DNA of 64,000 nucleotides from a virus (lineage: Duplodnaviria; Caudoviricetes). A model generated the notes under the pieces. That model did not search any database. It had not been told where the DNA came from and saw only the letters and a program-made list of their open reading frames with translations. Numbering within the stretch: the stretch's first letter is position 1; each line of letters starts with the position of its first letter. A program made the translations under genes and the position numbers. Location of the stretch: positions 192,001 to 256,000 of IMG/VR virus record IMGVR_UViG_3300002307_000018, one strand, 5' to 3'. Positions 31,914 through 35,276 of this stretch are shown here, one piece after another.

Positions 31914-32138
31914 CTATCGGCGCATTTTCCAAGTATAGTTTTCACCACTTGGCAATCGACCGTTTTCAACACTATCTACTCCCATCTTACCTACTTGATT
32001 GGGATTTTCTCCTACCATGGCCACGTATAAGCGACCGATAGTGCGTAGATGATTAGCTTGAGTTAGTGCTTCAATCATTTCCAGATATTCTTCACTACAT
32101 GCTTGACCGTCTGGTGCAGTCCAATATACTTTGTACAA
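31914..32138 (-). CDS. hypothetical protein
   Basis: ORF between tRNAs. Confidence 0.65.
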   Translation of the reverse strand: MYKVYWTAPDGQACSEEYLEMIEALTQANHLRTIGRLYVAMVGENPNQVGKMGVDSVENGRLPSGENYTWKMRR

Positions 32139-32157
32139 TATTTTCTCTTTTTCTAGT

Positions 32158-32232
32158 TGGTACCCCCTGATGGAATTGAACCACCATCACTAAGTTCGTA
32201 GCCTAGTATCCTATCCGTTGAACGAAGGGGGC
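32158..32232 (-). tRNA. tRNA-Arg(ACG)
   Basis: loop CTACGAA, CCA. Confidence 0.92.
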
Positions 32233-32241
32233 GTTGTTAAT

Positions 32242-32838
32242 TTAAAATCCAAACATTATTTTTCTAGCATCTTCAAAATAAATGTTCTCTGGGTGCAGCG
32301 GTCTTAGCGTAAGAATGATACGCTCGTTTGCTGACTGTCTGTTATCAAAATCGTGCCATATCTCTGTGTTAAACAAGACAGCCTCATTTGGCTTAGCACA
32401 CATTGTTTTCAATGGACAATGTTTGGAAGTATCGCAGCCAATAAGTCTACGGCCGGTTTGTCCAGGCGGATTATCGTCTGTTTGATAGTCTTTCATATCT
32501 TCATCCGAGAACCAACTAGTGATACACTTATCATCTAGTATTTTTATCGGATAGTTAAAACTAATGTGCGTAGCTATACCATCCTTGTGTACTCTGCCAT
32601 AATGGCCAGATTTACTAACCAACAATGATACACGCTCATGATTTAATTCAAACTGAGTAGACATCGGCGACATATCAAGAATCTCTTGACCCAGTTCTTT
32701 GTCGAATTTGTGTTGTGCAAACTGATATGGGAATTCTATCTTAGATGCAATATCCTGACAGCGATTGATTATTTGTGTCAACATTGGATACGTAAATCTA
32801 ATATAATATGGGCTACAATCTTCTATGATACTATACAT
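32242..32838 (-). CDS. 2OG-Fe(II) oxygenase-like protein (paralog of 40355-40990)
   Basis: HKD ... FNTEIWHD ... R; shared IEDCSPYYIRFTY N-terminus. Confidence 0.7.
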   Translation of the reverse strand: MYSIIEDCSPYYIRFTYPMLTQIINRCQDIASKIEFPYQFAQHKFDKELGQEILDMSPMSTQFELNHERVSLLVSKSGHYGRVHKDGIATHISFNYPIKILDDKCITSWFSDEDMKDYQTDDNPPGQTGRRLIGCDTSKHCPLKTMCAKPNEAVLFNTEIWHDFDNRQSANERIILTLRPLHPENIYFEDARKIMFGF

Positions 32839-32853
32839 ATCTTCTCTAAAAAT

Positions 32854-32930
32854 TGGTCGGAGTACAAGGATTCGAACCTTGGACTTCTTGCTCCCAAAGC
32901 AAGCACTCTACCAGACTGAGCTACACTCCG
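32854..32930 (-). tRNA. tRNA-Pro(UGG)
   Basis: loop TTTGGGA, CCA. Confidence 0.93.
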
Positions 32931-32940
32931 AAATTACTTC

Positions 32941-33177
32941 TTAACTATAGACATCACCGTGAGGTAACTCTGTGCCATTGGCAAGAGCAATAACCGCATC
33001 AACTGACTCCATTACTTCCCAGTTACCATGCGGAGGAATGAACACCATAGTGACTTCTACGATCTCACCAGTGGGTCTTGTTACCGTTGATTTAAATATA
33101 GATACAATTAAATCAGCATTGATTGCAATTGGCTCGTTTAGAAATTCTGGTCGTGCGTTAGTTAATTTAATAAACAT
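32941..33177 (-). CDS. FlbD/SwrD-like small protein
   Basis: MFIKLT...INADLI...VMESVDAV pattern. Confidence 0.5.
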   Translation of the reverse strand: MFIKLTNARPEFLNEPIAINADLIVSIFKSTVTRPTGEIVEVTMVFIPPHGNWEVMESVDAVIALANGTELPHGDVYS

Positions 33178-33195
33178 ATTTTCTCTAAGTTAATT

Positions 33196-33271
33196 TGGTT
33201 GCGACGTGACGGAATCGAACCGCCCCCTGTGGCTTATGAGACCACCGTGCTTACCTACACACTCACCCGCA
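33196..33271 (-). tRNA. tRNA-Met(CAU), initiator-like variant
   Basis: TGCGGG...CGCAACCA ends, loop CTCATAA, irregular acceptor. Confidence 0.72.
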
Positions 33272-33288
33272 ATTGTTACTATACTGAC

Positions 33289-33317
33289 ACTATAACACAC
33301 ACAGTATTTAGTGTCAA
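33289..33317 (-). promoter_or_regulatory. sigma70-type promoter
   Basis: TTGACA-17-TATAGT. Confidence 0.7.
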
Positions 33318-33318
33318 G

Positions 33319-33463
33319 GTATTTGTTGAGCAAGCTGCTATCACTGCCACGCCCAGTTCATTCGGCAGGGGTACGTCATGATGACGAACGTTCGTTCACT
33401 GACGGTTAGGAAAGGTAACCCGTGTGCATTTAACACTGCTCAAACAACTTGCTCAACAAATAC
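33319..33463 (-). ncRNA. stem-closed structured RNA (variant stalk)
   Basis: perfect 16-bp GTATTTGTTGAGCAAG / CTTGCTCAACAAATAC. Confidence 0.65.
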
Positions 33464-33467
33464 ATTA

Positions 33468-33542
33468 TGGTGGAGGGTAAGGGAATCGAACCCTTAACTC
33501 ATGCTTGCAAAGCACATGTGTTCCCGTTAGCACCAACCCCCC
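33468..33542 (-). tRNA. tRNA-Ala(UGC)
   Basis: loop TTTGCAA, CCA. Confidence 0.9.
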
Positions 33543-33552
33543 ATTAAAACTT

Positions 33553-33627
33553 TGGTACCCCCGACAAGAATCGAACTTGTAATAAAGGCTTATCAAGCCT
33601 CCGGTATAACCGTTTACCTACAGGGGT
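33553..33627 (-). tRNA. tRNA-Ile(GAU)
   Basis: loop TTGATAA, CCA. Confidence 0.9.
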
Positions 33628-33634
33628 GTATTTT

Positions 33635-33710
33635 CAATTTATTGAGTACACTACTCGCCCTAATCCCCTAAGCGGGGAGGTACGCTTAGACCAATGTACT
33701 CAATAAATTG
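33635..33710 (-). ncRNA. stalk-closed ncRNA, unit E10, pseudoknot cargo
   Basis: CAATTTATTGAGTACATT / AGTGTACTCAATAAATTG; CTAAGCG/CGCTTAG plus TCCC/GGGA. Confidence 0.75.
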
Positions 33711-33841
33711 TAGTGGCTGTCCCACTACTTGTCTCTTTTACTAACACGGTTACCGCCCGTGTATTCATCCAGAACCCCGCCCATTTAGTGTTTGTTTATA
33801 GTGATTCACACGGCTCTCGTTGCCTACATTCACTTACTGCT

Positions 33842-33876
33842 AAAAACAAAAAACCCTAGATTTCTGGTCTAGGGTT
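33842..33876 (-). terminator. Rho-independent terminator (putative attenuator)
   Basis: AACCCTAGA-CCAGAAA-TCTAGGGTT then TTTTGTTTTT. Confidence 0.85.
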
Positions 33877-33904
33877 CTGAGAATTTTATTTTGTATGCTT
33901 ACTA

Positions 33905-34063
33905 TTACATACAATTTCCCTGAACCCTGAACGCATCAATACGACCATTTGAGTGTGTCGGCATATTGCGTCCCTGTTTGCTAAACTCGGGCCAATATGC
34001 TTCCGCTGTGGCGTTTGACGCTACATAGACGGAACTCAAGAGGTTTAAAAGTTTAGTTTTCAT
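33905..34063 (-). CDS. putative 52-aa leader peptide (not in ORF track)
   Basis: MKTKLLNLLSSVYVASNATAEAYWPEFSKQGRNMPTHSNGRIDAFRVQGNCM; between promoter and terminator; TAA TAG double stop. Confidence 0.65.
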   Translation of the reverse strand: MKTKLLNLLSSVYVASNATAEAYWPEFSKQGRNMPTHSNGRIDAFRVQGNCM

Positions 34064-34075
34064 GTTTAAGTTAGT

Positions 34076-34104
34076 ATTATAATACAGCAGTGAATATTAG
34101 TCAA
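34076..34104 (-). promoter_or_regulatory. sigma70 promoter at head of tRNA array
   Basis: TTGACT-17-TATAAT. Confidence 0.9.
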
Positions 34105-34426
34105 GGACTATTTTCAATTTCTGTATAGTTATTTATCCATTTCGTAAAAAAGTACTATATAATAGCGATTTTTTACAGTTTACTCTATATTGAGAAAGTA
34201 TTTAGCTTCCTGTACTGCGTCATAATAATTTTTACTGCTTAATCTTTCGTAATTTCTACGGCAATATAAGTCTCCACGTGGCCACCACAATAACACAAAG
34301 TCACTGTGATCATCACGTTCAACTGTCCAAGAGATAGCTTGCATCATCGCATATAACTGTTAATGCAGATAATGGCAATGCCCACTGCTAGAACTATTAA
34401 GTCAATAAAGCCAAAGTACATCCAGA

Positions 34427-34591
34427 TCATGAGTTCACCGTATTGTAGGGACTAAATTCATCTTTTTCAAGAATAACATCAGTATAATCTCTATCATTCC
34501 ATGCTTTAACTACAAGCTCGGCCTCACGTAGACTATAGCCTGACCAGACGGGCACTCCACCGACCCAAACGATATATTTATATTCGCTCAT
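34427..34591 (-). CDS. hypothetical 54-aa protein (not in ORF track)
   Basis: AGGAG SD; behind promoter 34616-34644. Confidence 0.6.
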   Translation of the reverse strand: MSEYKYIVWVGGVPVWSGYSLREAELVVKAWNDRDYTDVILEKDEFSPYNTVNS

Positions 34592-34615
34592 GTATATTCT
34601 CCTATGTATGTGTGT

Positions 34616-34644
34616 AGTATACTTGAAACTGTATTTATTGTCAA
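34616..34644 (-). promoter_or_regulatory. sigma70-type promoter
   Basis: TTGACA-17-TATACT. Confidence 0.8.
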
Positions 34645-35276
34645 GGTTTATTTTCTAGTCTTTTAACTTCTTTATGGTTGTATGAGTATGCTGGGAAAGA
34701 ATCCATATACTTATTATATAAACCAAAAACACCCAATACGGCAATAAAAAGCGCCATAGTACCAAAAACCGGATGGCCAGTAGCGAACAATCGTAATACT
34801 AAGAAAAAAGAAACAAGTCCGACACCGTATGTCAAAAAAACACCAAATGAGTGTTCATGAACCCGTGAGCGGGCATTATCTAAATCTTGCTTATGCTTAT
34901 AAGCTTGTCCCTCGGGAGTAGCATAAAATCGATCCCATTCTTCGGATATTCGTTTGTATTCGGCTTCTTCTTCTTTTTCCAGCCTCATTTGCTCGGCTAA
35001 CTCTAGTGCCTGTTGCTGACGATAACCCGGAATTAGATCAAGCAATTTCTCACGTTGACGATATTCCTCTAGCTGACGTAGTTCCCAGATACGATCACTT
35101 TCAAGTCGTTCTTGACGGCTGGCCTGCTGAGCCATGCGCTCGGCATTTTGCTCAGCTAAATCATTCGCCTGTTTTGTCTGACGATTGATAGCATCGATTT
35201 GCCTGCAGGCGACACAATAGGCGACACCCTCTGACACTGGCTCGTAACAAGTAAAACAACGTGCAATGTAAGTCAT
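34641..35276 (-). CDS. membrane protein with N-terminal CxxC/CxxC and coiled coil
   Basis: CFTC...CVAC; two C-terminal TM helices. Confidence 0.7.
   Translation of the reverse strand: MTYIARCFTCYEPVSEGVAYCVACRQIDAINRQTKQANDLAEQNAERMAQQASRQERLESDRIWELRQLEEYRQREKLLDLIPGYRQQQALELAEQMRLEKEEEAEYKRISEEWDRFYATPEGQAYKHKQDLDNARSRVHEHSFGVFLTYGVGLVSFFLVLRLFATGHPVFGTMALFIAVLGVFGLYNKYMDSFPAYSYNHKEVKRLENKP

Follow-up and report, generated by a model that had tools for sequence, protein, structure and literature searches.

A putative leader-peptide transcription attenuator at the head of a phage tRNA array

Leader-peptide attenuation and the control of phage tRNA genes

In the attenuators of enterobacterial amino-acid operons (trpL, hisL, leuL, thrL, pheL and ilvL), a short promoter-proximal ORF is followed by an intrinsic terminator that lies before the regulated genes. 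The antiterminator shares one strand with the terminator and has its other strand at the end of the ORF, and the position of the ribosome decides which of the two helices forms. The element analysed here, which heads the tRNA array of a large freshwater phage, has a similar arrangement and, as in the trpL-type systems, several members of its family are predicted to have three states (no ribosome, stalled ribosome and ribosome that has finished). However, trpL-type attenuators regulate biosynthetic enzymes, while the phage element precedes phage-encoded tRNAs and small RNAs. Moreover, trpL-type leader peptides contain a run of one amino acid, whereas the phage leader has no such run and samples all 20 amino acids. 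The phage ORF is also leaderless or nearly so and has no Shine-Dalgarno sequence, and the member studied here is without a convincing 1:2 anti-antiterminator. A survey of pheL attenuators has been published (PMC3082878).

Other leaders and uORFs function as sensors of general translation stress, for instance toiL of E. coli (PMC12121999), the vmlR leader of B. subtilis (PMC9226507) and the msrD leader (PMC10314930). In these systems, a short upstream ORF likewise reports stalling of many causes and raises a factor that relieves it. They respond to antibiotics, often rely on arrest peptides or Rho, and have ABCF factors or toxin-antitoxin genes as outputs. By contrast, the phage element has an intrinsic terminator and tRNA genes as its output, and its presumed signal is decoding speed. 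Judged by analogy, the function proposed for the phage element is closest to that of such uORF sensors, for instance toiL (PMC12121999). Conditional terminators of the PASIFIC type (PMC5314783) also have, in a 5' leader, an upstream helix that excludes formation of the terminator; this is a generic class that is silent on the sensor. In T-box riboswitches, the status of a tRNA switches between terminator and antiterminator, in outline as proposed here, but the T-box binds the uncharged tRNA directly and involves no ORF, and the phage element has neither a specifier nor a T-box motif.

To our knowledge, how phages regulate their own tRNA genes is essentially unknown, and full-text literature searches returned no published description of such an attenuator before tRNA genes. 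The tRNA genes themselves have been discussed as compensation for codon usage or as a counter to host tRNA depletion and tRNA-cleaving defence (PMC10264068, PMC11555353, PMC12409363). The mechanism that we propose is classical leader-peptide attenuation; the tRNA output, the leaderless or near-leaderless ORF and the all-amino-acid leader were found in no described system.

Anatomy and folding of the leader

The window, i.e. the whole stretch of 64,000 nt analysed here, comprises bases 192001-256000 of a 264,637-bp IMG/VR virus record. In a metagenome search, near-identical DNA was found in many lake, freshwater and estuary metagenomes, and the INPHARED phage collection, searched in near, distant and protein modes, gave no matching relatives of the phage. 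The record has 31 tRNA genes, all on the minus strand at window positions 10995-33627, and all 20 amino acids are covered. The element is immediately upstream of this array with 31/31 tRNA genes downstream of it on the same strand (Table 1).

Table 1. Features of the element and of the beginning of the tRNA array (window positions)
Feature	Position	Strand	Basis or remark
A/T-rich region upstream of promoter	34105-34165	-	conservation
sigma70-type promoter TTGACT-17-TATAAT	34104-34076	-	11/12 consensus matches
Leader ORF P0001, 52 codons + stop	34063-33905	-	ATG 12 nt after -10 box
Antiterminator 5' arm, codons 44-50 of leader ORF	33916-33935	-	minimum-energy fold
Inner 8-bp hairpin inside antiterminator	33891-33914 (33914-33907 with 33898-33891)	-	fold
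Shared segment: antiterminator 3' arm = terminator 5' arm + 5 nt upstream flank	33865-33883	-	fold
Intrinsic terminator, 11-bp stem, 7-nt loop, U tract	stem 33878-33850, U tract to 33842	-	
Structured RNA directly behind terminator, ~130 nt	33711-33841	-	conservation; counterpart L059:6407-6545
E10 stalk element	33635-33710	-	within segment 33468-33710, without own consensus promoter before 33317-33289
tRNA-Ile	33553-33627	-	same promoterless segment 33468-33710
tRNA-Ala	33468-33542	-	same promoterless segment 33468-33710
Next consensus promoter	33317-33289	-	first one after leader promoter

The initial annotation had placed a sigma70 promoter, an almost leaderless 52-codon ORF and a strong terminator (33842-33876) in succession on the minus strand, and all three are present. 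Transcription is predicted to start at ~34069 (-), and the predicted 5' UTR of the ORF is ~5 nt. ACTAACTTAAAC separates the -10 box from the ATG at 34063, with no purine-rich Shine-Dalgarno sequence, and the ORF closes with three tandem in-frame stop codons (UAA UAG UAA, 33907-33899). The promoter is unchanged in relatives except for one or two spacer bases. Upstream of it, the A/T-rich region is 97-100% identical in relatives, while the adjoining protein gene there is just 76-79% identical; this region is possibly an UP element or a regulator site. As a side observation, the conservation of the 60 nt upstream of the -35 box seems to go beyond the needs of a plain UP element.

The terminator is the sole convincing intrinsic terminator on the minus strand between 10 and 48 kb, and no other of the same sequence type exists anywhere in the 264.6-kb record. 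It had also been claimed that a segment in the last codons of the ORF (33922-33930) pairs with the terminator 5' arm to give a mutually exclusive helix, and folding and shuffled controls bear this out. UCAGGGUUC at 33930-33922 is complementary to the terminator 5' arm, and the minimum-energy fold pairs 33928-33922 with 33871-33877 and 33920-33916 with 33879-33883. The antiterminator helix uses up the terminator 5' arm, and the leader stop codon is at the top of the stem and in the loop of the inner hairpin. With 60, 100 or 190 nt of native upstream sequence, the probability of the terminator hairpin is 0.19-0.35. In dinucleotide shuffles it is ~0.92, and probabilities as low as the native ones were obtained in 2/500, 0/500 and 0/500 shuffles, respectively. 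The masking of the terminator by the upstream sequence is not due to chance.

While this thermodynamic competition is observed in the folds, the effect of a ribosome on it was modelled, with the footprint represented by 30 unpaired nt around the A site. In this model, the terminator probability is 0-0.25 without a ribosome or with the A site at codons 1-37, and it is >0.9 with the A site anywhere from codon 42 to the stop codon. Without a ribosome, the antiterminator has a probability of 0.73 in the window vs 0.25 for the terminator, and the antiterminator is the minimum-energy structure at all lengths before the terminator 3' arm emerges, both in the window and in three relatives described below (L003, L005 and L059). 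From the footprint model and the folding, we infer an RNA design in which termination is allowed by a ribosome that completes the ORF and blocked if the ribosome lags or is absent. Folding of the window member gave no convincing 1:2 anti-antiterminator by which an untranslated leader would be terminated. Thus, in this member, no translation is predicted to mean readthrough.

Conservation in close relatives and in a wider family

Protein and metagenome searches recovered close variants of the leader, i.e. P0002 on L003/L004, P0003 on L005/L006, L017 and P0004, the last with a peptide that is 61% identical. The leader frame is open in all of these and in the more divergent L059; relatives from protein searches are, however, biased towards open frames. 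As a check on the attenuator reading, it had been proposed beforehand to ask whether related phages keep the ORF and the pairing, and the outcome is positive: the ORF, the position of its end, the antiterminator and the terminator are retained in the five close variants and L059. Indels inside the ORF are of 9 and 3 nt, and insertions of 5 and 2 nt are found just behind the stop codon. The upstream 55-aa gene is 76-79% identical in the close relatives, and neighbouring genes are thus 21-24% different. Identity is 97-100% over 100 nt at the promoter, over the final 42 nt of the ORF and from the terminator through the following 150 nt, and 89-93% in the first two thirds of the ORF. The last 42 nt, i.e. 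the 3' third, have zero changes in the close relatives, synonymous sites included, and the antiterminator 5' arm is 100% nucleotide-identical in all of them. The terminator is identical in L003, while L005, L059 and environmental variants differ only in the loop and in one base of the U tract. In P0004, the last eight residues correspond to the window DNA read one base out of frame (as inferred from the protein sequence only), and the length of the ORF is again 52 codons. Thus, the frozen 3' end together with the frameshift in P0004 at an unchanged 52 codons suggests that the 3' end is constrained as RNA and the frame as a frame, while the peptide is unconstrained.

Some findings in the close relatives speak against the attenuator reading. 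Substitutions at codon positions 1, 2 and 3 amount to ~5, 5 and 9 events, which is only a mild third-position excess. In L005, the equilibrium fold prefers the terminator even without a ribosome, and in L003 the antiterminator arm is left partly exposed by a ribosome placed exactly at the stop codon. The variation among the three close variants was too small for RNAalifold, which returned one compensatory pair and several broken pairs in the 5' domain. Behind the element, L003 carries tRNA-Ile, tRNA-Ala and other tRNA genes. ORFs of 180-183 aa that are absent from the window are present between or beside the first tRNA genes in two relatives (L003:3586-4137 and, on the opposite strand, L005:811-1353); such a placement is typical of mobile endonuclease genes.

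Several searches gave nothing further. There was no match to the leader peptide in viral contigs, and none in a scan of genome contigs with the peptide alignment. A 17-nt antiterminator word had ten matches in viral contigs, all by chance, and a 30-nt word from the downstream structured RNA had none. The terminator pattern had 40 matches in genome contigs, all of them unrelated terminators. Three other candidates were rejected: P0005 and P0006 from a profile search are repetitive proteins and spurious, and L002, found via the neighbouring 91-aa gene, is not syntenic and has no tRNAs.

L059 was recovered by a scan for the terminator motif and aligns with the window only from the terminator onwards (81% identity). 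Its promoter, TTGACA-17-TACAAT, is followed by the same ACTAACTT with the ATG directly after it, 8 nt past the -10 box. The ORF has 47 codons and encodes a peptide (P0007) that is for the most part unlike that of the window and likewise includes all 20 amino acids; a protein search with it matched only itself. The antiterminator, GGUUCUGAAU with AUUC-A-AGAACC, is partly different in sequence with the lower helix re-written, and the 8-bp inner hairpin has an entirely different sequence in the same place, with the stop codon in its loop. Downstream follow the same terminator and structured RNA, and then tRNA-Ile, Trp and Ala. In the footprint model, L059 behaves as the window does.

The terminator motif is present at 64 viral loci, of which ~36 have tRNA genes 4-100 nt behind the terminator. 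Roughly half of the 64 have no tRNAs and represent ordinary terminators at gene ends; these were set aside. Screening of the motif loci together with L003 and L005 gave 21 distinct leaders with a recognisable promoter, the window included. They share a design, delimited here from IMG/VR loci, in which the ATG of a 22-57-codon ORF follows 6-12 nt behind the -10 box of a consensus promoter, a terminator (AACCCUAGA-loop-UCUAGGGU6) is located 25-33 nt after the stop codon, and the tRNA array comes next. The window differs in having, with L003, the longest -10 to ATG spacing (12 nt), and in its first tRNA being preceded by 220 nt of additional structured RNA; in the other leaders, the spacing is 6 nt (13 leaders) or 7-9 nt (6 leaders). 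At sigma70 promoters, a spacing of 6 nt from the -10 box to the ATG puts the transcription start on the A of the ATG. Thus, the mRNAs of those family members are predicted to be leaderless and, accordingly, the missing Shine-Dalgarno sequence is a family trait and not a defect of the window ORF.

The distance from the stop codon to the AACCC core of the terminator is 25-33 nt in 21/21 leaders and 28 nt in the window. The last 12 codons pair with their cognate terminator flank at a mean of -16.5 kcal/mol, compared with -12.5 kcal/mol for non-cognate flanks, and in a test with 12 representatives 0/20,000 permutations were as good as the cognate pairing. The antiterminator pairing thus covaries across the family. 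In footprint modelling, many members follow the three-state logic of trp, i.e. the terminator is favoured without a ribosome, the antiterminator with a ribosome early or midway in the ORF, and the terminator again with a ribosome at the stop codon.

In the window leader peptide, all 20 amino acids are present and five of them (C, D, H, I and W) are single, exactly as the initial annotation had stated; this variety recurs across the family. All 20 are present in ~4.6% of 52-residue windows of this phage's proteins and in ~9% of composition-matched stop-free shuffles. All five close variants keep the 20 kinds, with the single His at position 37, 17 or 13 depending on the variant. Beyond them, all 20 kinds are found in family leaders of 35-57 residues (including leaders of 35, 37, 40, 42, 43 and 47) from several unrelated peptide groups, leaders of 25-31 residues contain 18-19 kinds, and most family leaders hold 17-20 kinds. 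Trp and His are present in every family leader. The probability of the observed variety is 3e-2 to 3e-4 per leader. Because the variety recurs far beyond chance, we conclude that the all-amino-acid trait is a selected property of the family. In the window member, this trait comes with two reservations: the Ile, Asp and Cys codons are only in the last 11 codons of the window ORF, where a stall would favour termination, and the leader codons are not enriched for matches to the phage's own anticodons (85% vs 84% in phage genes). Since leader and array each cover all 20 amino acids, codon matching is not informative in this member.

A separate observation, for which there are no statistics, concerns relatives with short leaders (L027, L036, L051, L068, L070 and others), in which the residues before the antiterminator often name the first tRNAs. 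For instance, L051 has Ala-Ser-Ala-Trp in the leader and an array starting with Ala, Ser, Ser, Trp, and L025 has Ser-Trp-Ser...Cys in the leader and an array starting with Ser, Trp, Cys.

Competing readings and proposed mode of action

The covariation across 21 leaders, the fixed distance of 25-33 nt between stop codon and terminator, and the amino-acid variety support the leader-peptide attenuator reading of the initial annotation. We consider it likely that the element is a ribosome-mediated leader-peptide transcription attenuator heading the tRNA array, although translation of the ORF and regulated readthrough have not been shown. If so, feedback control of tRNA genes by leader-peptide attenuation would be described here for the first time, extending this type of attenuation beyond amino-acid metabolism. 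The element would also represent a natural case of leaderless initiation tightly coupling the first ribosome to the polymerase, and a compact, portable sensor of elongation status for synthetic biology.

Because the RNA switch itself is well supported while translation is only inferred, the terminator could instead be controlled by a factor other than the ribosome, such as an RNA-binding protein, a small RNA, a tRNA or a metabolite, with the open frame as a by-product of RNA constraint. The synonymous sites frozen in the 3' third of the ORF would suit this possibility, as would the lack of a Shine-Dalgarno sequence, the short 5' UTR and the gene-unlike codon usage of the window ORF, all three of which are awkward for an attenuator. 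Specifically, nearby protein genes behind consensus promoters all have a leader of 25-50 nt and a clear Shine-Dalgarno sequence, and initiation on a 5' leader as short as ~5 nt is usually weak. The codon usage scores -0.015 bits per codon, which is under the 5th percentile of phage genes and near the top of stop-free off-frame windows. However, control by such a factor would leave unexplained why the ATG is 6-12 nt after the -10 box in 21/21 leaders, why the frame always closes 25-33 nt before the terminator, why amino-acid variety is under selection, and why the ORF ends in tandem in-frame stops. In addition, an Rfam search of 32000-35000 with E up to 1 returned only tRNAs, and neither a T-box (RF00230) nor a riboswitch. 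We therefore regard this explanation as unlikely.

It is also improbable, in our assessment, that the locus is an ordinary small unit encoding a short early protein or a stable small RNA of ~225 nt, in which the terminator insulates the array from early transcription upstream and the competing helix just makes it leaky. A promoter followed by a terminator is the standard layout of a small RNA or small gene, the neighbours are small early-type genes with consensus promoters, the leader ORF is better conserved than these neighbours, and RNAs derived from attenuators can have second functions, as rnTrpL does (PMC6614838). The peptide, however, is unconserved in L059 and at the C-terminus of P0004, while the RNA geometry is conserved. 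AlphaFold2 predicts a lone helix and a disordered tail (mean pLDDT 64, residues 40-52 <50), a model of low confidence with no fold usable for a search, and the tail coincides exactly with the region of highest conservation. A PHROGs scan of the leader ORF and six neighbours gave nothing informative for the leader ORF and no family match. The mild codon-position bias, the gene-unlike codon usage and the helix with its tail fit a leader peptide better than a functional protein. An independent small-RNA gene would be expected to have an efficient, unmasked terminator, yet here the terminator is masked and crossed by RNA contigs. Moreover, the masking helix covaries and tRNA arrays are constantly associated with the element, which favours a regulated terminator rather than an incidental one.

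The RNA contigs come from three metatranscriptome studies. Assembled contigs cover 33691-34041 and stop at ~34041-34078, with the upstream genes uncovered. Two contigs of 151 nt bridge the terminator (33780-33929 and 33733-33883), and one divergent contig seemingly joins leader, terminator and tRNA-Ile. The best-covered part is the structured RNA, with contigs in all three RNA libraries. Being assembled and of low depth, these contigs cannot reveal where transcripts end, how abundant they are or whether they are regulated; they agree with a transcription start near 34069 and with natural readthrough. The structured RNA, which would be the first product on readthrough, shows 97-100% identity among the close relatives without matching any Rfam family, and four pairs of its hairpin at ~33747-33765 (loop GCGGUAA) are compensatory in L059.

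A further alternative is processive antitermination of the lambda PR'-tR'/Q type, with a phage factor acting on the polymerase close to the promoter so that it passes the terminator. It would account for a strong promoter and short terminated transcript ahead of a long operon, and the almost invariant 100 nt at and upstream of the promoter could then represent the binding site of such a factor. However, it needs neither the ORF nor the antiterminator helix, both of which are conserved and covarying, and a PHROGs scan limited to the neighbouring small ORFs found no Q-like gene among them. We judge it very improbable.

For the leader-peptide attenuator, we suggest the following model, in which the direction and size of the effect are inferred. 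Host RNA polymerase would initiate at the consensus promoter, and a ribosome would load on the AUG, which lies very near the start of the mRNA. Given prompt decoding of the 52 codons, this ribosome would be on the last ~ten codons as the terminator 5' arm emerges, and the zone that it occupies would reach the stop codon, 28 nt before the AACCC core. With the in-ORF antiterminator arm buried in the ribosome, the terminator hairpin would form and transcription would end at ~33842. By contrast, a delay of the ribosome anywhere within about the first 37 codons, or a failure to load, would allow the antiterminator (33928-33916 with 33883-33871) to form first. The polymerase would then continue past the terminator through the structured RNA, tRNA-Ile and tRNA-Ala towards the rest of the array. 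Almost all amino acids are represented in the leader, so that readthrough would be increased by slow decoding at many different codons. In other words, decoding speed would feed back on how much transcription enters the phage tRNA genes.

More tentatively, we speculate that leaderless pan-amino-acid leaders are general sensors of decoding speed that provide closed-loop control of tRNA supply in many large phages, with any tRNA shortage opening the terminator; at present we would not call this wider claim probable. If it were true, a shortage arising from a mismatch in codon usage, from host shut-off or from tRNA-cleaving defence nucleases would feed transcription of the array, and attenuation would have a previously undescribed class of targets and a previously undescribed sensing logic, widespread in environmental phages. 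The physiological trigger is inferred: anticodon nucleases, as first proposed, could be the trigger, as could host shut-off or simple autoregulation.

The reach of the element within the array is limited. At least seven further consensus promoters lie inside the array (33317, 28611, 27576, 22960, 22204, 14407 and 11830), which speaks against broad control. Thus, the element can be the sole control of the first segment only, down to ~33317. It can exclusively gate the structured RNA, E10, tRNA-Ile and tRNA-Ala, and further down it can only add flux. In a count over the minus strand at 10000-36000, at least 10 promoters of the type TTGACA-xTAAAT...TATAAT are spread over the array without a further intrinsic terminator, and its transcription seems to proceed in long overlapping units.

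Two minor observations concern the beginning of the array. A tRNA-like stretch at 33200-33270 (-), directly behind the consensus promoter at 33317-33289 with its extended -10, scores 34.6 bits with the Rfam tRNA model and is not called by ARAGORN; it may be an aberrant tRNA or a tRNA-like gene. In E10, the 5' stalk (AAUUUAUUGAGUAC) is kept in L003, L005 and L059 while the interior sequence is swapped, and the alignments to these three relatives break at 33693, within E10, which fits a constant stem with exchangeable cargo.
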